A stretch of DNA of 7,944 nucleotides, from IMG/VR virus record IMGVR_UViG_2703718859_000024. One strand, written 5' to 3'. The position numbers and the translations under genes were made by a program. Below, in pieces: positions 529-7,944 of the stretch. A model generated the notes under the pieces. That model saw nothing but the letters and a program-made list of their open reading frames with translations, ran no database searches and was not told the DNA's origin. The stretch is from a virus (taxonomy: Duplodnaviria; Heunggongvirae; Uroviricota; Caudoviricetes). The first letter of the stretch is position 1. Every line of letters starts with the position of its first letter.

Positions 529-936
529 TTAGTCTTGCGTGATTTTATTGGCGTGCTTCTTTCTCAGGCGTCGTATGATGTCGTAAATATGGGTTTCGGA
601 TATTGCGTACTCTTTGCGTAATGTCTGCAATTTTTCGCCGTTATCCCACCTGTAGTAAATCTCGTATTCGCGCAATGCTGCGAAAAGTGATCTGCCTGTT
701 GGAAGGTAAAGACTTCGCCCACCAGCATAGAAGGCGATTGCAGCGACAACCCGCTTTGCGATTCTGAAAGCGTCTGCCTCCTCCATGCCATTACGGGTAA
801 GCTCCGCTACTGAATGCGACACGATATCAGCAAGCGAATCACACCATGCATCACCTGGTTTATCTCCGTTGTCTATGGCGTCGATGAATTTAAGCCGCTC
901 GATGTCTTTTGGTACGTGATGGGTTTGCTCGTTCAT
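529..936 (-). CDS. Mor/C-family transcriptional activator (Mu middle/late operon regulator family)
   Basis: 135-aa ORF, ATG at 936-934 preceded by AAGAGG, stop TAA at 531-529. The C-terminal half (AFYAGGRSLYLPTGRSLFAALREYEIYYRWDNGEKLQTLRKEYAISETHIYDIIRRLRKK) aligns motif for motif with the Mu Mor region as I recall it (...LGGGQVYIPRGQALDSLIRDLRIWNDFNGRNVSELTTRYGVTFNTVYKAIRRMRR): GG, Y-x-P-x-G, NG, and the terminal IRR-x-R HTH. Confidence 0.65.
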   Translation of the reverse strand: MNEQTHHVPKDIERLKFIDAIDNGDKPGDAWCDSLADIVSHSVAELTRNGMEEADAFRIAKRVVAAIAFYAGGRSLYLPTGRSLFAALREYEIYYRWDNGEKLQTLRKEYAISETHIYDIIRRLRKKHANKITQD

Positions 937-1049: not shown

Positions 1050-1322
1050 TTACTTCTGGTAGCTACGCCAGATTTTTTTACATCTCCCTCCTATCCCCAT
1101 TTCTGCGTATGTGCGGTTTACTGCTTTCCTCAGGTCTGCGTAGTTCTCCTCTGGCGGCTCCGGTGGCCTCTGTGCCTTCCCGTAACACTCTGCCCTGCGC
1201 ATTGCCACCCGTTCGCGTTCCCTGTCTGTCTCCACCAGCATCATCACTTCGGCCCATCGCGCCGCCGTTCTCCGGTAAAAGCCTTTCGACTCCAGTTCTT
1301 CCGCTATGCGGTCATGTACCAT
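1050..1322 (-). CDS. Hypothetical protein, about 90 aa (ORF-track entry 1050..1442 trimmed to the internal ATG)
   Basis: ATG at 1322-1320 preceded by GGGGAG about 5 nt upstream, starting 10 nt after the SSB stop (TGA 1335-1333). Stop TAA at 1052-1050. The longer form would overlap the SSB C-terminus by about 110 nt. No family recognised. Confidence 0.45.
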   Translation of the reverse strand: MVHDRIAEELESKGFYRRTAARWAEVMMLVETDRERERVAMRRAECYGKAQRPPEPPEENYADLRKAVNRTYAEMGIGGRCKKIWRSYQK

Positions 1323-1332
1323 CGTTCTCCCC

Positions 1333-1743
1333 TCAGAACGGAATATCATCACCATAAGGGTCATCGCCTCCCGCTGGTGGCTGATTACCCTGTGTGCCTG
1401 TGGTCCTGCGTCTGCTGCCACCTGGTTGCGCCGTTTTCGCACTGATTACGCTGTCTGCAATAACCTGATAACCCTGCCGCGTTTCCCCGTTCTGTCCGGT
1501 CCACTGGCTGACCTGCATCACGCCGGATACGCTGATTACGTTGCCTTTCTCATGGTGTGCCAGTTGGTCGGCCTGTTTGCCAAATGCCAGGACCGACAGC
1601 CATAACGTCGCCTGCCCGTCCTGCGCCTGACTGCATGGCAGTGATACCGCCATACGCGCCAGCGTCATCGGTGTGCCCTTACTGGTCTGTTTTGTCTGCG
1701 GGTCGTCAATCAGTCGCCCGTAAGCTGCTATCTGTGCTGTCAT
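1333..1743 (-). CDS. ssb: Single-stranded DNA-binding protein (SSB) with conserved acidic C-terminal tip
   Basis: 136-aa ORF, ATG at 1743-1741 preceded by GGAGAGGTGG. The N-terminal ~110 aa fit the SSB OB-fold pattern (AYGRLIDDPQ...LWLSVLAFGKQADQLA...KGNVISVSGVMQVSQWTGQNGETRQGYQVIADSV), followed by a Gly/Pro/Gln-rich linker and a terminal DDIPF identical to the bacterial SSB tail. Confidence 0.85.
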   Translation of the reverse strand: MTAQIAAYGRLIDDPQTKQTSKGTPMTLARMAVSLPCSQAQDGQATLWLSVLAFGKQADQLAHHEKGNVISVSGVMQVSQWTGQNGETRQGYQVIADSVISAKTAQPGGSRRRTTGTQGNQPPAGGDDPYGDDIPF

Positions 1744-1981
1744 GATTCCACCTCTCCGGTTTTAACGTTGATGGTTGTTACCTGTTCCGCTTCTGCAATC
1801 TCCCGCTCTGTCAGCGTGGTAAAGTTTGTCGCTGCTGTGCTCATGAATGCACTTATCAGCCAGGGGGCTTTCGCGTGTCTTTCTGCCGTGTTGTGGCCCT
1901 TCGTTCACGAGCAAAACACTTAAATAAAAATAAAGTGATTTTCTGTGTTTTCGTGCTGCTCTGCTCTGTTTTTTTTTGCCG

Positions 1982-2181
1982 TTTACTCACCACTACTCAC
2001 TTTTTTTACTCACTTTTTGGAATCGCTCACTTCGTCTCACCTGAGATTTTTGGTGTTTTTATGTGTATGTTTTATAAGTGGTTTTTTACTGCTCACTTTT
2101 TTGCCTATATACAGGTGAGAAAGTGAGTAATTTTGTTAATTTTTTGTAAAATTACTCACTTTACTCACTTTTGCTCCTCAC
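1982..2181. repeat. Iteron array flanking an A+T-rich stretch: putative replication origin
   Basis: Nine direct copies of the core CTCAC (mostly as TTACTCACTTT) starting at 1986, 1996, 2009, 2026, 2036, 2092, 2155, 2164 and 2177, plus two inverted copies (GTGAG) at 2115 and 2123. Several are about 10 bp apart. They flank a T-rich segment at about 2041-2090, directly downstream of the replication gene stop at 2186. Confidence 0.55.
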
Positions 2182-2185
2182 TTTT

Positions 2186-3583
2186 TTACAGCGGTACTAC
2201 GTCATCGCCGTCAATGCGTATAGTCTCGTCTTTCTCCAGTTTTGCTAACCATCGCCGCATGTTTTTCACGTCATACCCAAGCCGTTTCATGTCGTCGCGC
2301 AACAACGAAATAGTGCACTTGTCGCCGTGCTGTGTGCGTGACCGGATGCACCCCCATAGCGCGGTATGGTTTTCCGTCTTGTTCCCTGCCTCCTCGATGC
2401 GCTCCTGTTCAACGGGAGGACGCGGCTTATCAACCACCACCAGCGACGTAATTAACTCCCCGTCAGCGTCGGTAAAAAGCTCCACCACGCGTAAGTCATA
2501 TGCTGCTTCTTTGAGTTCCTCCGCGTCCTTCATTTTGGTACATGAGATAACCAGCGCTTCGCTGCCTGCGTCCTCCCTGCGTATCCGGTATTCGGCGTCC
2601 AGTGATGCACGAAATGCACTGGAACCGCGCGCGCCTTTCGTCTCATCCTTGCCGGAATGGTGAACCACCAGCACCGTGGCCCCTGTGCGCCGTTTAAGCT
2701 CGTCACACCCACGGATAAACGCCCCCATATCACGGGAATCATTTTCATCATTGCCGCCAAAGCAACGCGCCAGCGTATCCAGAATAATCATGCGTACAGG
2801 TTTACCCGTTTCCCGCTCCACCTGGCGGGCAGCGATAACCATTTCATCAACATCAAGCGGGACAGCCGGAAAGATGGGACGGTTTACCAGATACAGATTT
2901 TTCACCTGCTCACCGTGCACAACCTCCCAGGCTTTTACACGACGCGGAACGCCGATACCTCCTTCACCAACCACATAGAGAACCGCACCATGCGCCACCC
3001 TGCGGCCTCCCCACTGGCGCCCCGTGGAAACGTGACACGCCCACGAACCCGCAAGGAACGATTTATAGGAACCGCTCGCCCCGTATATGCTGCATAGCGA
3101 CGATGCCGGAATAATCCCCTTTACCACGTAATCAAGTTGTGTATCGTATCCGGCAGAACCAACGCTCATCGGTAGCTTTGTTTTGCGCTGGTGGCCTTTT
3201 TCTTCCTGCTTTTCCCCGCGCTCCCGTTCCAGATATTCGCGCCAGTTCTCCCGCTTCTGGCTGTGCATCCCATCGGGGTAATAATTCGCATCCTGTACAC
3301 CTGCCGCTGCCAGCTTGTGCGCAATGGCATTAATATTTGATGGTCTGATATGGCCTGCCTTGTACAGCCGGACGCAATAGCGGCCCTCGTCGATGATTCT
3401 CATGTCTGTCAGTTCTGCCAGTTGCTGCTCCCCAAGCCATACAGGTGGCACATTATCGCCAGCAAGTCGGCCCTCCTGCTCCTGCCACTGCTTCGCGTGT
3501 GCCCAGGCATCACTACCCGCAAAAATAATGACCTCGGTCATTTTGTCGTAAGGCTGTTTTTTTAAGTTCGGTGCGCTTTTCAT
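2186..3583 (-). CDS. Replication protein: primase/helicase-like with RecA-fold (RepA/DnaB-like, AAA_25-type) ATPase domain
   Basis: 465-aa ORF, ATG at 3583-3581, stop TAA at 2188-2186. Deviant Walker A YGASGSYKS, Walker B-like MIILDTLAR, and VLVVHHSGKD (the hhhHHxGK motif typical of RepA/DnaB-type RecA-fold ATPases). An iteron array lies immediately downstream. The C-terminal ~100 aa could be a DNA-binding domain; that is inference. Confidence 0.8.
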   Translation of the reverse strand: MKSAPNLKKQPYDKMTEVIIFAGSDAWAHAKQWQEQEGRLAGDNVPPVWLGEQQLAELTDMRIIDEGRYCVRLYKAGHIRPSNINAIAHKLAAAGVQDANYYPDGMHSQKRENWREYLERERGEKQEEKGHQRKTKLPMSVGSAGYDTQLDYVVKGIIPASSLCSIYGASGSYKSFLAGSWACHVSTGRQWGGRRVAHGAVLYVVGEGGIGVPRRVKAWEVVHGEQVKNLYLVNRPIFPAVPLDVDEMVIAARQVERETGKPVRMIILDTLARCFGGNDENDSRDMGAFIRGCDELKRRTGATVLVVHHSGKDETKGARGSSAFRASLDAEYRIRREDAGSEALVISCTKMKDAEELKEAAYDLRVVELFTDADGELITSLVVVDKPRPPVEQERIEEAGNKTENHTALWGCIRSRTQHGDKCTISLLRDDMKRLGYDVKNMRRWLAKLEKDETIRIDGDDVVPL

Positions 3584-3879
3584 TTCTTGCCCCTGAATGC
3601 GTTAATCATCTTTTTCATCTTCTGTATTTTTGCCAGTGCCTTTACGTTGCTGGTGGGCACGTTACGCGGTACCGCCTGCACCAGAGAAAAATCACGGGAA
3701 AACTGATAAACAGGCATCACGCAATCATATTCGTAGCCTTTACGGCGGTAGGTGACGCACCGCCCCGCCACGCCCTTAATCATTACCGTGCCGCCGTACT
3801 GGTCGCGGTAAATATCACCGCGCTTAAATTCAGGGCGAGGCTTGCCGCTGGCAGTTAAGCCAGTTTTTTTCATGTTCAT
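3580..3879 (-). CDS. Hypothetical protein, 99 aa, translationally coupled to the replication gene
   Basis: ATG at 3879-3877 with AAGGA about 9 nt upstream. Its stop TGA (3582-3580) overlaps the ATG (3583-3581) of the downstream replication gene in an ATGA arrangement. Basic protein, no family recognised. Confidence 0.5.
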   Translation of the reverse strand: MNMKKTGLTASGKPRPEFKRGDIYRDQYGGTVMIKGVAGRCVTYRRKGYEYDCVMPVYQFSRDFSLVQAVPRNVPTSNVKALAKIQKMKKMINAFRGKK

Positions 3880-3952: not shown

Positions 3953-4267
3953 TCACGAATGGCGATAATCAGTACTGATATCTCCGTTACGGCAACGCCA
4001 GTTGTACACCTCCACAACCTCACTGAATCCGGCCACAAGTTCAGCCGTAACAGCGATGGAATCGCCCAGGCTGCGCAGTTCGTCCATGTCAGGATCAATG
4101 CTGTCACTCATGCCAGAAAGTAAGCGCCCTGTGATAGCCAGCCCTTCAAGCAATTTGCGGGCGTAGAAGTCAGCATCATCAAACATCGCTCTCGCTTCCC
4201 GTGCGTCAGCTGCTTTTATGGTTGTAACCAGTTGTTCAAGTATTCTGGTGTTACACACATCACGCAT
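3953..4267 (-). CDS. Hypothetical protein, about 104 aa (ORF-track entry 3953..4297 begins at TTG; the internal ATG is preferred)
   Basis: ATG at 4267-4265 preceded by GGGGGGA and overlapping the stop of the 154-aa gene by 8 nt, the same geometry as the junction between the two paralogs. Stop TGA at 3955-3953. No recognisable motif. Confidence 0.45.
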   Translation of the reverse strand: MRDVCNTRILEQLVTTIKAADAREARAMFDDADFYARKLLEGLAITGRLLSGMSDSIDPDMDELRSLGDSIAVTAELVAGFSEVVEVYNWRCRNGDISTDYRHS

Positions 4268-4724
4268 GACGTCCCCCCTGACGAATACGGGCGACAAAAA
4301 TCAGATGGGTATGCGGAAGTTGTGCGCGGGTTTCGCGTTCTGTTGCTGCCGTGGCGGTAAAGGGTGAGGCTTGTTTTTCATGGCACTGCATAAAGCGCCA
4401 GACAAAGTAAGGGCGTGCGGATACAGCCATGTGAAAGGCTCCTGTAGTGAAATTAAGGAGTCTCGCTACTACGCTGCTAAACATGGTGGCGAGACGTAAC
4501 GGGGTTAGCAGACTGGCACTACAGGAACCAGCGAGCGCAAAGGCTCCCCCGTTACGCCCCGCCATAATGCGGGTATGGGTAGGTTTACGGACGCAAAAAA
4601 ACCGCATATCGGAATGTAAGCGGCTGTCCGCTGTAGTATTCAGGCTGCTAAACCCGGTCGCCATGTGGGCGACTCCGGCATCATACAGCCCGAAAGAAGA
4701 GGCGATCAACATGTTTTTAAGCAT
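4260..4724 (-). CDS. Hypothetical protein, 154 aa; downstream member (A) of the tandem paralog pair
   Basis: ATG at 4724-4722 preceded by GGGGGTGAG and overlapping the 3' end of the upstream paralog by 8 nt; stop TGA at 4262-4260. C-terminus ...FVWRF...TERETRAQ...IFVARIRQGGRHA parallels ...FIWRF...TEREARNR...VFAARIRQGVSHA of the 181-aa protein. Confidence 0.5.
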   Translation of the reverse strand: MLKNMLIASSFGLYDAGVAHMATGFSSLNTTADSRLHSDMRFFCVRKPTHTRIMAGRNGGAFALAGSCSASLLTPLRLATMFSSVVARLLNFTTGAFHMAVSARPYFVWRFMQCHEKQASPFTATAATERETRAQLPHTHLIFVARIRQGGRHA

Positions 4725-5262
4725 GACTCACCCCCTGACGAATACGGGCAGCGAATACAGCGACACAACCGGACGGGCAACGGTTACGCGCTTCGCGTTC
4801 CGTCCAGGCGGTTACGTGGATAATTTGACGTTCTGACGTGCCAAAGGTGATAAAACGCCAGATAAAGGCAGTCTGAGAATGTACGAGGGCTGGGGTAGTA
4901 GCCATGATGGCAGCCTCCTTTATCGTTGGGATATACCCACCGCTGGAGGTTCCAATCTCGCTGGCGGTGGACTGCACGGAGTTGGAACTACTGGCGATAA
5001 AGGAAACCAGCCTGACCGAAGTCAGCCCCATACAGCCCACCATTGATAAGGTGTGCGTGTGCGCCGATACAAAAAAAGACGCGTTCGGCGTCTGTATCGC
5101 CTTTATCTCCAGCGGGGTTCCAATCCCGACACCCGTTTTATAAGGTGCGCGGGAATCATAGCCATTTTTGATACTGGCGATCAACTGATTTTCTCTGGCG
5201 GGTATTTGGCGCGGATGCCTGTTGCCTGTGACAATATGCACACGACTGTATACAATACACAT
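4717..5262 (-). CDS. Hypothetical protein, 181 aa; upstream member (B) of a tandem paralog pair
   Basis: ATG at 5262-5260 preceded by AAGGAG at about 8-nt spacing; stop TAA at 4719-4717. Homologous over its length to the next gene (shared N[MQ]LIAS, YD, FF, THT, WRF, TERE and C-terminal ARIRQG..HA). The corresponding plus-strand ORF is not preserved in the other copy. Confidence 0.5.
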   Translation of the reverse strand: MCIVYSRVHIVTGNRHPRQIPARENQLIASIKNGYDSRAPYKTGVGIGTPLEIKAIQTPNASFFVSAHTHTLSMVGCMGLTSVRLVSFIASSSNSVQSTASEIGTSSGGYIPTIKEAAIMATTPALVHSQTAFIWRFITFGTSERQIIHVTAWTEREARNRCPSGCVAVFAARIRQGVSHA

Positions 5263-5436: not shown

Positions 5437-5640
5437 TTATTCCTGCTGATAACGCTCCTCTACTTTCTTCTCAAGCCATGATTTCACCTCATCCTCAAAC
5501 CAGCCAACGCGACGCAATCCACGCTTAAAGCCAGGAATAAACTCACCAGCCTTAACCATTGTGTCAATGCTTGTTGTACTAAGGCGAAGAAGATTTGCGA
5601 CTTCTCGTTTTGTAAGGATTTTCTTTTCTGTGATGTTCAT
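5437..5640 (-). CDS. alpA: AlpA-family phage transcriptional regulator / excisionase-like HTH protein
   Basis: 67-aa ORF, ATG at 5640-5638 preceded by AAGGAAAG RBS, stop TAA at 5439-5437. Sequence ...LLRLSTTSIDTMVKAGEFIPGFKRGLRRVGWFEDEVKSWLE matches the AlpA/Xis-type pattern (HTH then conserved VGW...E...WL). Confidence 0.75.
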   Translation of the reverse strand: MNITEKKILTKREVANLLRLSTTSIDTMVKAGEFIPGFKRGLRRVGWFEDEVKSWLEKKVEERYQQE

Positions 5641-5777: not shown

Positions 5778-6674
5778 TCAGTCGTCAACGTCTGCAAGCC
5801 ACTTACCAACAGATGAAGGGGTTGCGCCAATTTCAACCCCTGCTTTGGTTAGTGCGCGGCTTAACTTGCTGTGACCGTTCTCAAGCGCTCTTCTTGGGTT
5901 TGCTGCCTCTTCTTCTCCGGCTATGGCGGTGATTAGTCTTTTGATAACTCTGGCCTGAAGATTGGTTGTTTTCTTACTCTGCGAATGCGACAAGGCGTGT
6001 TTATCTGAAAAATCCTTTACCATATCTCCTGGTTGTCTGCCGCCGTTCATTACTATTTTTATCTCTTCTTTTGAGATGAAAATGTCACTAATATTTATTG
6101 TTTTGCCATATAAATTTATTGTTATCTTTGGTTCTTTTCCTTTATCTGCTATAACGATGCGTCGCACATAACAATCTGTGACGTCATTTGATAGATTCTC
6201 TATATCAATGCTTGTATTAAATACCTGTAAAAGTCCTGAAGCCACAACCCTGATTTTATGTGGTAACTGTGTTCTGATTTTTCTTTGTTTATATCCATGA
6301 TAGTTGTATATAAAAATATCTGTTTCAGAATAACCGCCACAGCAATTAAAAAATATCTTTTCCGTTAGCTGTTCTTCATCGGTTATTATTTTTTCACCAA
6401 AAGATGAGGATTCAAGTAATTTTAATATGTCGGTTGCTCTGATGAATACGCCTTCATCATTTTCATAATAATAATCTGATGCTGATACACTATTAAATGC
6501 GTTTTTATAATTATGTAATGTCAAAACCTCGTCTATGTGATGACGGTACCAAAAACACATCTTCCCTGTAGCGATGAAGTGAATCAAATCATCAACGTCA
6601 CACCCAAGCCTTCTGGCTGCCTTGTCTAACGGGTAATAATCCCTTTCAGGAAGGTTTATCTTTTTGTTTGTCAT
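5778..6674 (-). CDS. Hypothetical protein, 298 aa, with helix-turn-helix-like N-terminal segment; A+T-rich 5' two-thirds, ordinary-GC 3' end
   Basis: ATG at 6674-6672 lies 4 nt downstream of the integrase stop, on the same strand; stop TGA at 5780-5778. Residues ~13-38 (YYPLDKAARRLGCDVDDLIHFIATGKM) fit an HTH pattern. Hand counts of 60-nt stretches inside 6000-6360 give roughly 25-40% G+C, versus ~50% or more in neighbouring genes. I recognise no family for it. Confidence 0.6.
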   Translation of the reverse strand: MTNKKINLPERDYYPLDKAARRLGCDVDDLIHFIATGKMCFWYRHHIDEVLTLHNYKNAFNSVSASDYYYENDEGVFIRATDILKLLESSSFGEKIITDEEQLTEKIFFNCCGGYSETDIFIYNYHGYKQRKIRTQLPHKIRVVASGLLQVFNTSIDIENLSNDVTDCYVRRIVIADKGKEPKITINLYGKTINISDIFISKEEIKIVMNGGRQPGDMVKDFSDKHALSHSQSKKTTNLQARVIKRLITAIAGEEEAANPRRALENGHSKLSRALTKAGVEIGATPSSVGKWLADVDD

Positions 6675-6678
6675 GCCC

Positions 6679-7944
6679 TTAACCGTTAACCATTTTTAAC
6701 CCACGATAGCCACCTGTGGCGCTTACGCTCCCGCTTGCGGCTGCCTCTACAAAATTCCCCCACCACGCCATTAACGGGCGTCGCTGCTCGAGATAGGTTG
6801 AGCGGTTGTACGCGCGGCGAACCTCGTTTTTGTCTATGTGTGACAATGCCGCCTCGATTACGTCAGAGTCAAAACCTTGCTCGTTAAGTGCGGTACTTGC
6901 TATTGAGCGCAAGCCATGAGCAACCAGCCGCCGACCAAAACCCATGCGTTTTATTGCTGCGTTTGCTGTTTGTGTGCACATAGGGCGCTGCGGGTCGCTG
7001 TTGTGTGGAAATATAAACTCACGATGCCCGCTTATTGGCTTCATGACATCCAGAATGGCTAACGCCTGCTTTGAGAGTGGTATTACGTGTTCCCTGCGTT
7101 GTTTAAGTCTGTGCTCTGGTATGCGCCATTCCTTCGCCTCAAAATCAATCTCACACCAGCGCGCGCCAGCTGCTTCACCTGGTCGGCAAATTGTCAGTAA
7201 CTGCCACTCAATAACCAGCCGCGTTTGTCGTTCCACTCGTGCCGTTGCCAGCTTCTGCATAAAATCGGGGAGTTCTTCAGGGCGTATTGCTGGCATGTTC
7301 TTAGCGCTCGGCGCGTTAAATGCCTTGTTTATCTGTGATGCCGCATTCGCGGTAATCATTCCGGTATTAACGGCGTAATACATGACCTCATTGATTCGCT
7401 GCGCCGTTCTTCTGACGGTATCTAATTTCCCCTGGGCGGCTAATGGTTTTAATGCTTCGATGAAGTTGCTTGCGATCAGGTCTGCTACTGGTCTGTTGCC
7501 GACTGACGGGAATACATTACGCTCCAGCGAGCGCCATGTATCGCGTAGTGTGCCTTCTGCGAGTCCTTGCCCTTTTTTAAGTTCAAACCAAAGCGTAGCT
7601 ACATGCCTGAAGGTGTTCTCTCTCTTCATCACTTCACTAAGGCGCTGTTTCTCTCTGTGCTCTTTTGGGTCAATGCCACCAGAAAGAAGCGCCCTGTATT
7701 CGTCTTTTATCTTTCGCGCGCCCGCAATGCTTATTTCTGGATATGCGCCAATGCTTAACATGGCCCGTTTTTTTGTGTGTGGCTTGTAGTAGCGGTAACG
7801 CCACAAGCAAGAGGCGCTTTTGTGCTTAATCACCAGTTCCAGCCCTTCGCCGTCAGTGATGAAAAGGTCCTTTTTTTCGTTGCTGGCTTTTCGCTGGAGG
7901 CTTTTTATCGCTGCTGGTGATAAGGACTTAGTTTTTTTGGTCAC
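6679..7944 (-). CDS. int: Tyrosine recombinase, P4-family phage integrase; first codon GTG lies on the window edge, so the N-terminus may continue beyond the window
   Basis: 421-aa minus-strand ORF ending in TAA at 6679-6681. C-terminal catalytic region shows box I arginine (ICRPGEAAGARWCEID), box II HGLRSIASTAL...LSH and the tyrosine-bearing RRAYNRSTY. N-terminal region (GEGLELVIKHKSASCLWRYRYY...IGAYPEISIAGARKIKDEY) looks like the arm-binding domain of P4-type integrases. Confidence 0.9.
   Translation of the reverse strand: MTKKTKSLSPAAIKSLQRKASNEKKDLFITDGEGLELVIKHKSASCLWRYRYYKPHTKKRAMLSIGAYPEISIAGARKIKDEYRALLSGGIDPKEHREKQRLSEVMKRENTFRHVATLWFELKKGQGLAEGTLRDTWRSLERNVFPSVGNRPVADLIASNFIEALKPLAAQGKLDTVRRTAQRINEVMYYAVNTGMITANAASQINKAFNAPSAKNMPAIRPEELPDFMQKLATARVERQTRLVIEWQLLTICRPGEAAGARWCEIDFEAKEWRIPEHRLKQRREHVIPLSKQALAILDVMKPISGHREFIFPHNSDPQRPMCTQTANAAIKRMGFGRRLVAHGLRSIASTALNEQGFDSDVIEAALSHIDKNEVRRAYNRSTYLEQRRPLMAWWGNFVEAAASGSVSATGGYRGLKMVNG

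Follow-up and report, generated by a model that had tools for sequence, protein, structure and literature searches.

A bacterial-type SSB ending in the E. coli tip motif, encoded beside the putative replication origin of a PICI-type phage satellite

[quoted passage not shown] We infer this role from the domain plan of the protein and the position of its gene. The window, that is the whole stretch of 7,944 nucleotides analysed, comprises nearly all of an ~8.1-kb island inserted in mdtP. The reading frame runs from the ATG at 1743-1741 to the TGA at 1335-1333 and is intact, giving 136 amino acids with the C-terminus ...GGDDPYGDDIPF. A Shine-Dalgarno sequence, GGAGAGG, was located by inspection at 1751..1757 (minus strand), 7 nt upstream of the ATG. 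The preliminary description of this DNA had placed the gene at exactly these coordinates but omitted its strand, which the list of open reading frames gives as minus. Plus-strand reading frames within 1306-1745 are unsupported, being antisense to the profile-supported SSB gene. An identical protein, containing PF00436 and named SSB, is already public.

The SSB consists of an N-terminal OB-fold domain, a linking region and a short acidic tip. Its assignment as a short SSB with the OB-fold profile, proposed beforehand together with the proviso that a mismatch to that profile would refute it, is borne out by the profile and structure comparisons. The profile is matched above cutoff by both Pfam PF00436 (58.1 bits, E 9.9e-16; cutoff 26) and TIGR00621 (56.9 bits; cutoff 53.95), and 26 SSB chains in the PDB match at E<=0.01. 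A Foldseek search of the PDB with the AlphaFold2 (AF2) model gives SSBs throughout the best 50 matches listed, with a best E of 3.4e-9. The predicted ssDNA-binding domain spans residues 1-102 (1438..1743, minus strand), is modelled with a pLDDT of 84-93 and resembles SSB crystal structures in Foldseek. It contains strands at residues 2-11, 16-19, 25-36 and 44-54, a helix at 55-62, and two further strands at 69-82 and 88-101. The model then continues with residues 104-136 at pLDDT <50, which is read as disorder. Residues 103-127 (1363..1437, minus strand) form the linker, which is rich in Gly, Gln, Pro and Arg and is the site of indels among homologues.

Aligning the OB domain with that of E. 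coli K-12 SSB by BLASTP gives an identity of only 25%. The equivalents of E. coli W54, F60 and W88 are present as W48, F54 and W81. The position of W40 is non-aromatic in both alignments, with the loop alignment uncertain at 25% identity, and the equivalent of H55 is a leucine. As equivalents of W40 and H55 are not seen in the alignments, the DNA-binding mode and tetramer formation of E. coli SSB cannot be assumed for the island protein. The profile of enterobacterial chromosomal SSBs, NF006533, scores 23.7 bits (cutoff 260) and that of conjugative-plasmid SSBs, NF010292, scores 20.1 bits (cutoff 265). These values, with the low identity to the chromosomal protein, rule out both a copy of the host ssb gene and a plasmid-type SSB. 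The predicted product is a bacterial-type SSB that is neither an orthologue nor a recent copy of host ssb. It nevertheless has several features in common with E. coli SSB (b4059, 178 aa), namely the OB fold, the W54/F60/W88 equivalents, a Gly/Gln/Pro-rich disordered linker and the terminal DDIPF. The linker is the shorter of the two, with ~25 residues as opposed to ~55 in the E. coli protein.

The acidic tip, DPYGDDIPF (residues 128-136; 1336..1362, minus strand), matches K-12 MDFDDDIPF at five of nine residues, all of which lie in the terminal DDIPF, while positions -6 to -9 differ. By a naive estimate a five-residue C-terminal identity would arise by chance at ~20^-5, and as the tip is kept across homologues whose linkers vary by indels, the identity is not due to chance. 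The pattern DDP[YF][GS]D[DNG]IPF is conserved across all linker-length alleles of the family (136, 140/141, 146 and 149 aa). The final residues are themselves allelic. Among the 120 closest homologues, taken as cluster representatives, DDIPF is found in 77 and DNIPF in 26; DNIPF belongs to the 140/141-aa forms, DGIPF is seen in O157:H7 PA20 and YDDDF in Klebsiella. The earlier claim that the tail is the DDIPF of the host therefore holds for this protein, in all five terminal residues, but not for the family as a whole. The host-like tail of the island protein is the usual tip conserved among SSBs. In E. coli SSB it is recognised by host proteins such as Pol III chi, DnaG, PriA, RecO, RecQ and ExoI, and SSBs with host-type tails on mobile elements have long been a known theme. 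The tail has been described as a docking site for host genome-maintenance proteins (PMC5928155; bioRxiv 10.1101/2020.04.14.041095).

A tip identical to that of the host over five residues could fill the same binding pockets, which opens the question, raised in the preliminary description as competition for partner proteins, of whether the satellite SSB displaces host SSB or titrates tip-binding proteins, slowing host or helper replication and adding to PICI interference. With an OB domain only 25% identical to that of the host, the protein could conceivably enter mixed nucleoprotein complexes or form competing ones. Strong interference with helpers is a known trait of PICIs, as is harm to the cell when their induction is uncontrolled (PMC6092414). 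The genes to which interference has been mapped in EcCICFT073 are, however, others, c1499 and c1500 (PMC6092414). Moreover, a pure titrator would need no conserved, selected OB domain, and the constant position of the SSB gene next to the origin, whatever the type of replicase, points to replication. Interference as the function of the protein is hence unlikely.

The SSB family is already known, being large and annotated, and the SSBs of PICIs have been noted before (PMC10111431). Of 5426 complete E. coli genomes, 1136 have a BLAST match to it, O157:H7 and Nissle 1917 among them. This census was taken from the E. coli genome BLAST and a look-up of the exact protein, in place of a single-protein search of genome contigs, which gave 3 Klebsiella loci. 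A tblastn search of 50,697 phage records returned 12 distant SSBs with identities of <=35% and no member of the family above that value, which rules out recent capture from a sequenced phage. Purifying selection on the family is evident from dN/dS values of 0.09-0.29 overall and of 0.08-0.29 for the OB domain taken alone.

The gene can also be lost, as follows from a premature TAG at SSB codon 18 in the closest complete-genome copy (NZ_AP045179) and from a cluster of 111-aa truncated forms. Such losses would be expected of a dispensable passenger, left over from an ancestral replication module and carried along with no present role in a minimal 8-kb island without packaging genes. That the small gene upstream is already a remnant, that capsid and terminase genes were not found in the island, and that SSB lies outside the essential genes reported in PMC10111431 would fit the same idea. 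The copy in the window is nevertheless intact and has a good Shine-Dalgarno sequence, the assembly collection has 571 blocks with the exact protein, and the family retains its tip at a dN/dS of 0.1-0.3, so that a protein devoid of function is improbable.

The gene context argues instead for the accessory replication role. The gene upstream (2186..3583, minus strand) encodes a predicted RepA-family helicase, which is taken as the island replicase. It matches Pfam AAA_25 (E 2e-43) and phrog_2850 over its full length, is annotated by PGAP as a 'helicase RepA family protein', and shows weaker matches to helicase/primase PHROGs and weak matches to RadA. No primase catalytic domain was detected in this replicase, whose type differs from the described pri-rep alleles. 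It is followed by an AT-rich iteron array (1982..2187), the putative replication origin of the island. The repeat AGTGAGYA occurs in 6 copies within 1994-2169 against 0.36 expected, a number attained in none of 200 shuffles, and the GC content of the array is 32-35% compared with 54-59% for the flanking genes. From the array to the SSB gene further downstream, the distance is 240-440 bp. Iterons are found in the equivalent position in other PICIs, with a sequence that is specific to each element.

Between the array and the SSB gene lies the 3' remnant (1740..1865, minus strand) of a small gene found ahead of SSB in other PICIs. The translation of this remnant, ...LISAFMSTAATNFTTLTEREIAEAEQVTTINVKTGEVES*, is interrupted by stops upstream, matches the C-terminus of an intact 83-aa protein of O157:H7 PA20, and ends at a TGA overlapping the SSB start codon (ATGA). 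PGAP treats the homologous sequence as a pseudogene truncated at its N-terminus. The remnant marks a recombination scar at the boundary of the replicase and origin cassette.

The order replicase, iterons, small gene and SSB recurs in the capsid-forming PICI (cfPICI) of O157:H7, in the E. coli Nissle PICI and in Klebsiella islands, and the replicases adjacent to SSB homologues are of four unrelated types (AAA_25; DUF927; D5_N/DUF5906; and Zn-ribbon/Toprim/DUF927). As the tip is constant beside all four, partners from the host or helper are likelier than a cognate island replicase. On this comparison, replicase-and-origin cassettes are exchanged among PICIs and the neighbouring SSB is retained, which helps to delimit the units of satellite recombination.

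The same comparison bears on whether the tip recruits a Red-beta/RecT-type annealase of the helper, or the RecA-fold AAA_25 protein of the island, for recombination-dependent replication or the formation of packaging concatemers. The precedent is the SSB of phage HK620, the last six residues of which are required for Sak4 loading (PMC5928155). Red-beta reads at least seven C-terminal residues of E. coli SSB (bioRxiv 10.1101/2020.04.14.041095), of which the island protein matches five (YGDDIPF against FDDDIPF). The core of the island helicase is RecA/RadA-like, its RadA matches being weak, but four unrelated replicases in the company of one SSB family speak against any fixed island partner, and no annealase gene was found in the island with Pfam or PHROGs. 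Mediation of annealing is accordingly a very unlikely role.

The satellite nature of the island is apparent from its gene order, which runs integrase, AlpA, Ash/Icd zone with P4-type C4/isrK RNAs, DUF4222, RepA-type helicase, AT-rich iterons, SSB, PerC and Mor, with all genes identified on one strand. In five of five public contexts examined mdtP is split by the island, and in one that was checked a 24-nt direct repeat flanks it. The preliminary description had placed the SSB on a mobile island, though it recognised neither the PICI type of the island nor the annotated SSB family, and the insertion in mdtP, the direct repeat, and the integrase, AlpA and replicase on the same strand corroborate this. 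The P4-type tyrosine integrase of 421 aa (6679..7944, minus strand) contains the Pfam domains Arm-DNA-bind_3, Phage_int_M and Phage_integrase and scores 525 bits with NF007246. An AlpA-type HTH regulator (5437..5640, minus strand) matches Phage_AlpA at 23 bits (cutoff 21), HTH_17 and phrog_66. Tandem Ash/Icd-like genes, the 'Bro zone' (4260..5262, minus strand), are recognised by PGAP ('ash family', 'Icd-like') and Phage_ASH and contain Rfam matches to C4 (77.6 and 73.5 bits) and isrK (61.5 and 36.6 bits). The reading of this zone as a P4-style immunity region follows PMC10111431. A DUF4222 protein (3580..3879, minus strand; E 1.8e-23) is the conserved partner upstream of the replicase, and its gene is placed likewise in the PICIs of O157:H7 and EcN.

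On the other side of SSB, a PerC-family regulator (1050..1319, minus strand; Pfam PerC E 2.2e-37) is given 89-90 aa by PGAP and gene calls. Its ATG at 1319, which is the start in public annotations, lies 13 nt past the SSB stop, and the two genes are probably co-transcribed. A 130-aa GTG-started reading frame at 1050-1442 that overlaps the 3' end of SSB is an artefact of ORF extension, with the PerC domain beginning at its residue 41. PerC alleles are borne by PICIs (PMC6092414). A Mor-family transcription activator (529..936, minus strand) matches Pfam Mor (E 3.9e-23) and a PHROG annotated 'late transcriptional activator'. A scan of both strands over 400-2300 revealed no sigma-70-like promoter, and the four terminator-like matches in the same region are all on the plus strand, with none on the minus strand. 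ARAGORN finds no tRNA in the window, but the corresponding stretch is annotated by PGAP with tRNA-Tyr and tRNA-OTHER; the Rfam score of the first element is 35 bits.

With reference to the criteria for Gram-negative PICIs (Fillol-Salom et al., 2018, PMC6092414) and SatelliteFinder (PMC10085698), the island is by its gene content a PICI-type phage satellite, with an integrase and attachment site at its end, an AlpA-type regulator and co-oriented genes. No capsid, terminase or redirecting families were found among the scanned island ORFs with Pfam and PHROGs. SatelliteFinder would class it as a 'Type C' PICI-like element, packaging and capsid-hijacking genes not having been found.

The preliminary idea that the SSB supports the island's own replication fits this context, in which the gene lies downstream of the helicase and putative iteron origin in an arrangement recurrent in PICIs. 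A helper phage would induce the AlpA-driven leftward operon and the island would excise. The RepA-family helicase would then open the adjacent AT-rich origin, and the island SSB, made from the same transcript as the helicase, would coat the exposed single strands. The disordered linker would present the tip ...DPYGDDIPF, the motif that host proteins read on E. coli SSB, allowing satellite ssDNA to be handled by the host replisome even with host SSB limiting or occupied by the replicating helper phage. Fold, disordered linker, tip, closeness to the putative origin, PICI synteny and purifying selection are what the analysis shows, while single-stranded DNA binding, oligomeric state, co-transcription, the partners of the tip and a benefit to satellite replication are inferred. 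The host's own SSB, being plentiful, may be enough for the satellite, which counts against the accessory replication role. According to PMC10111431, which cites earlier work, the genes essential for induction and transfer of PICIs are int, alpA and pri only, and as SSB is absent from this set it would be at most accessory. In the literature searched, mention of a PICI SSB was found in PMC10111431 and its preprint only, and no functional study of one was found.

A wider reading of the tip alleles treats PICI SSBs as conflict factors, in which a satellite-specific OB domain is combined with a tunable tip (DDIPF, DNIPF, DGIPF or YDDDF) and the alleles set the spectrum of partners. This is a speculative proposal and quite improbable. 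If true, host SSB clients could be selectively taken over, helper replication and recombination starved or redirected, or SSB-sensing defences (Retron-Eco8, DARNA, Hna) triggered or evaded. A direct part in defence, in which the non-host SSB serves as trigger or decoy for SSB-sensing systems (Retron-Eco8, DARNA, Hna, DRT10) and so shapes satellite-helper-host conflicts, is extremely unlikely. Several defence systems detect the SSBs of phages but not that of the host (PMC13402713), and the OB domain of the island SSB is indeed distant from that of the host. However, the sensed SSBs described (e.g. T7 gp2.5) are from other families, no island feature ties the SSB to an effector, and its context is a replication module. 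PADLOC gave no match for SSB, the helicase, PerC, Mor or two unannotated ORFs.

For the accessory replication protein favoured here, the practical value is one of annotation, in that the gene can be assigned to a PICI-type satellite replication module and is neither a host gene nor a new system. Satellite SSBs of this family occur in roughly one complete E. coli genome in five, and it is worth knowing whether they promote satellite replication, whether the tip allele alters the set of host proteins recruited and whether SSB-sensing defence systems detect them.

The closest known systems are PICIs and cfPICIs such as the cfPICI of O157:H7 PA20, next to roxA, and the PICI of E. coli Nissle at tRNA-Pro, whose SSBs form one protein family with the island SSB. 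Identities are 80-89% for DNA and, in the protein clusters that match, ~82-88% for protein, and domain plan and tip are alike. Both share a slot of DUF4222, replicase, iterons, small gene and SSB, with PerC next in O157:H7. Tommasini, Mageeney & Williams (2023, PMC10111431) place PICI SSB together with Primase and DUF5906 next to mapped origins. The compared elements have a DUF927 or D5-type primase-helicase in place of the RepA/AAA_25 helicase, and the small gene truncated in the island is not so in them. The island also differs in lacking identifiable capsid, terminase and redirecting genes, and ends in PerC, Mor and two tRNA-like elements. Satellite phage P4 resembles the island in its P4-type integrase, AlpA/Vis-like HTH protein, C4/isrK-type immunity RNA region and size of ~8-11 kb. 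P4 is not known to encode an SSB, and its psu, sid, delta and alpha primase-like families (capsid size, late activator, primase) have no match in the island with Pfam and PHROGs.

Phage HK620 similarly encodes a mobile-element SSB with a C-terminal tail in E. coli. The terminal hexapeptide of this SSB, NDYPPF, serves as a functional docking tail for Sak4, an ATPase with a RecA core whose loading depends on it (PMC5928155). The HK620 tail deviates from that of the host and serves a cognate annealase encoded adjacently, whereas the island tail is of host type. The Ssb of F-type conjugative plasmids (NF010292) is likewise a bacterial-type SSB of a mobile element with an acidic tail, from a different lineage. 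That an element's own SSB supports its ssDNA phase is an idea from conjugative plasmids (PMC8406263). Plasmid SSBs are encoded in the leading region, act on transferred ssDNA and suppress mating-induced SOS, whereas the island SSB is encoded next to a putative theta-type iteron origin in a phage satellite.

The SSB gene of the island (1333–1743, minus strand) encodes a protein of 136 amino acids. In the ORF list its ATG lies at 1743–1741 and its C-terminus reads ...QPPAGGDDPYGDDIPF*, and a Shine–Dalgarno sequence, GGAGAGG, is found 7 nt 5′ of the ATG. Residues 5–99 match the Pfam SSB family (PF00436; 58.1 bits, E = 9.9e-16) and the ORF scores 56.9 bits against TIGR00621, for which the cutoff is 53.95. 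In the PDB, 26 SSB chains match the sequence at E ≤ 0.01; Thermus-type two-OB SSBs and the Thermotoga SSB rank highest, and E. coli SSB reaches 3e-5. In an AlphaFold2 model, for which the input alignment contained 23 family members, residues 1–102 form a confident OB barrel (pLDDT 84–93) and residues 104–136 are without structure (pLDDT below 50). The best 50 matches listed when this model was compared with the PDB by Foldseek are all SSB crystal structures. Three of the four aromatic DNA-contact positions of E. coli SSB are retained in an alignment at 25% identity. The protein thus has the profile, the fold, and the linker and acidic C-terminal tip of an SSB; tetramer formation and DNA binding are putative. 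The preliminary description had named a missing match to the SSB OB-fold profile as the outcome that would speak against it; since the profiles, the model and Foldseek all return this fold, that outcome did not arise. Its coordinates for a short SSB are exact, and its reading of the protein is essentially correct in substance.

The host comparator was E. coli K-12 SSB from NC_000913. Alignment confirms the host-identical tip that had been claimed, as the final five residues of both proteins are DDIPF; over the final nine (DPYGDDIPF in the island protein, MDFDDDIPF in K-12 SSB) five are identical. Between the OB domains, BLASTP identity is only 25%. A copy of host ssb was rejected on this identity and on the score against NF006533, the enterobacterial chromosomal SSB family (23.7, cutoff 260), and a plasmid-type SSB on the score against NF010292 (20.1, cutoff 265). 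The protein therefore belongs to a separate SSB lineage with a generic bacterial tip, and it is not orthologous to chromosomal or plasmid SSBs. F-type plasmids are described as encoding and even transferring their own SSB (PMC8406263).

Within the family, the 23 aligned members are 70–96% identical and their linkers fall into several indel-defined alleles, giving proteins of 136, 140/141, 146 and 149 amino acids. The C-termini of all 23 conform to DDP[YF][GS]D[DNG]IPF, and the tip is thus the conserved portion of the C-terminal region. Among the 120 closest homologues listed, taken as representatives of 90%-identity clusters, 77 end in DDIPF and 26 in DNIPF; the 140/141-residue alleles pair with DNIPF and the 136- and 149-residue alleles with DDIPF. 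The homologue of E. coli O157:H7 PA20 has DGIPF. Klebsiella homologues (9001–9444 in each of the loci L003 and L004; 56–69% identical) end in ...P(L/Y)YDDDF, a tip that is acidic and keeps the terminal Phe but has no Ile-Pro. Ends resembling D-x-[ILV]-P-F are frequent in representatives at ≤50% identity (290 proteins, E ≤ 1e-10, many entries being fragments). Judged from these sequences, ‘host-type DDIPF’ holds for the window copy and the majority allele and is not invariant in the family.

Every gene identified in the window is read from the minus strand. First in transcription order is a P4-type integrase (6679–7944; NF007246, 525 bits), followed by a 298-residue ORF (5778–6674) for which Pfam, NCBIfam, PHROG and PADLOC give no match. 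This ORF is conserved in those public copies of the island that were examined, and satellites typically carry cargo or defence genes at this position. An AlpA-type HTH gene (5437–5640) is succeeded by two tandem paralogous Ash/Icd-like genes (4717–5262 and 4260–4724). Inside this pair a P4/P1-type immunity RNA module is duplicated, with Rfam C4 (77.6 and 73.5 bits) and isrK (61.5 and 36.6 bits) elements at 4482–4569, 4595–4686, 4960–5047 and 5072–5148, all on the minus strand, and there is also a c4-a1b1 target-like match. An ORF of 104–114 residues (3953–4297; no family match, 104 residues in public annotations) fills the gap to a DUF4222 gene (3580–3879), and a RepA-family AAA_25 helicase follows (2186–3583). 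On the 3′ side of the SSB gene lie PerC (1050–1319) and then Mor (529–936); these activators (529–1319) occupy the place of the capsid or terminase genes of other PICIs, and their possible targets are promoters of a helper phage or LEE-type promoters of the host. Activation of LEE by PerC alleles carried on PICIs is mentioned in PMC6092414. Between Mor and the far end, about seven (T)TTCAC motifs are spaced at about 10 nt (319–393), with TCACCTTCTT three times in tandem, and might bind a regulator or serve in packaging. At the far end are two tandem tRNA-like elements (41–122 and 146–240, minus) that share the T-arm/acceptor 3′ half GGTTCGACCCCCRCCACCAGCA. The first scores 35 bits against Rfam tRNA (gathering score 29) and the second 20.6 bits; ARAGORN calls neither, and PGAP labels the homologous places tRNA-Tyr and tRNA-OTHER. 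Possible readings are cargo tRNAs and remnants of earlier tRNA attachment sites.

In public genomes the island is about 8.1 kb long and is inserted in mdtP, with mdtO and fdhF on either side. It splits mdtP in all five public contexts examined, for example at 11397–11789 and 20136–21209 of L001 (the locus of NZ_AP045179) and at 2521–3615 and 11961–12347 of L009, another such context. In L001, the one locus checked for repeats, a 24-nt direct repeat, GTATGCCTTTTTGTATGCCTTTTT, flanks the island at 11860 and 19988. The insertion inactivates mdtP; a target that is not a tRNA gene is unusual for a P4-type integrase. Carriage of the SSB by a mobile element, as first proposed, is borne out by the integrase, AlpA, the replicase and this insertion.

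In the 200 bp that follow the helicase stop, an AT-rich iteron region (approximately 1982–2187; 32–35% GC, against 54–59% in the flanking genes) forms a candidate origin. It contains six exact AGTGAGYA motifs where 0.36 are expected, a number reached in none of 200 shuffles, together with degenerate copies in both orientations. PICI origins lie 3′ of the replicase (PMC6092414, PMC10111431), the arrangement seen here. Neither strand of 400–2300 gave a sigma-70-like promoter in the scan, and the four terminator-like matches there were all on the plus strand, none on the minus strand. The PerC ATG lies 13 nt past the SSB stop, which together with these results is consistent with a single helicase–SSB–PerC–Mor transcript.

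The SSB probably assists replication of the satellite as an accessory protein. AlpA-dependent induction would produce it along with the helicase, it would coat ssDNA at the adjacent origin, and its host-type tip would pass the coated DNA on to the replisome and the repair proteins of the host. The fold, disorder, tip, synteny, origin and selection on which this reading builds are all observed; expression, ssDNA binding, oligomeric state, partners and a benefit to the satellite are presumed. RecO, PriA and further genome-maintenance proteins bind to the acidic tip of bacterial SSB (PMC5928155), and the host-like tip of the window protein is this conserved docking motif. That the protein acts instead as a competitor or interference factor is considered unlikely. 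The last six residues of the phage HK620 SSB load Sak4 (PMC5928155), and Red-beta recognises at least seven C-terminal residues of E. coli SSB (bioRxiv 10.1101/2020.04.14.041095); a recombination mediator with a phage or island partner is distinctly unlikely. Retron-Eco8 is activated by phage SSBs and not by host SSB (PMC13402713); a defence trigger or decoy is very improbable here. A literature search yielded no work on the function of any PICI SSB, and the remaining interest lies in the function of these proteins and their tip alleles.

Counted against the accessory role are loss-of-function copies, the non-host tip alleles and the abundance of host SSB, as is the absence of SSB from the genes reported essential (PMC10111431). 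The nearest complete-genome copy, NZ_AP045179 (96.7% identity over the whole window), has an SSB gene at 13320–13730 of L001 with a DNIPF tip and a premature stop at codon 18 (CAG to TAG), and PGAP therefore calls a 111-residue protein from an internal Met; clusters of such N-terminally truncated 111-residue forms occur among the homologues. Nei–Gojobori comparison of the window gene with the O157:H7, E. coli Nissle (EcN) and Klebsiella homologues gives dN/dS of 0.09–0.29 for the whole gene and 0.08–0.29 for the OB domain, and thus purifying selection. The gene is kept in the family yet dispensable in individual strains; that it is merely a dispensable passenger is improbable. DNA matches occur in 1136 of 5426 complete E. 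coli genomes, 717 of them covering at least 80% of the gene. The exact protein is present in 571 blocks of the assembly collection, with the same island at all four places returned, and NCBI records already label it ‘single-stranded DNA-binding protein’. Some small enterobacterial plasmid records carry the family, and 50,697 phage records hold no match above 35% identity, only 12 distant ones. The window SSB is ordinary and already annotated, and the satellite SSB family to which it belongs is very common.

The same family is found in other satellites. The capsid-forming PICI of O157:H7 PA20 is ordered int, HTH, Icd-like, DUF4222, DUF927 replicase, 83-residue gene, SSB and PerC, then major capsid, protease, portal, connector, HNH and terminase. 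The classical PICI of EcN at tRNA-Pro has a D5_N/DUF5906 primase, a 92-residue gene, SSB, capsid, decoration protein and small terminase, and in Klebsiella the SSB lies 3′ of a Zn-ribbon/Toprim/DUF927 primase-helicase of 920–942 residues. The iterons between replicase and SSB are element-specific: TACTCAC in the window, TGCGGGTTA in O157, GGTAGAC in EcN and TGAACCAAC in Klebsiella. Comparison with the intact 83-residue gene of PA20 (L006, 9408–9659) shows that the small pre-SSB gene is reduced in the window to its final ~35 codons (1740–1865), with a stop that overlaps the SSB ATG; PGAP treats the matching stretch as a truncated pseudogene. This remnant and the element-specific iterons and replicases therefore indicate that replicase and origin were exchanged as a cassette and the SSB(–PerC) unit stayed, with 1740–1865 a recombination scar and the breakpoint immediately 5′ of SSB. 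Four unrelated replicase types, each with its own iterons, adjoin one SSB family with one tip, which argues that the tip serves constant host or helper partners and not the cognate island replicase.

For Gram-negative PICIs, Tommasini et al. assign ‘Primase, SSB and DUF5906’ to replication, beside mapped origins, and note C4/isrK-type immunity RNAs in the ‘Bro zone’ (PMC10111431). Fillol-Salom et al. define GN-PICIs, with AlpA as activator and PICI-borne PerC alleles (PMC6092414), and in SatelliteFinder int, AlpA and replicase alone constitute a ‘Type C’ PICI-like element (PMC10085698). The island has an integrase with a specific site and AlpA, has a replicase-plus-iteron origin in part, and shows no packaging or hijacking gene among the ORFs scanned with Pfam and PHROGs. 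From its gene content it would work like a minimal PICI or P4-style satellite, and it is not filed as a full PICI or P4-like element.
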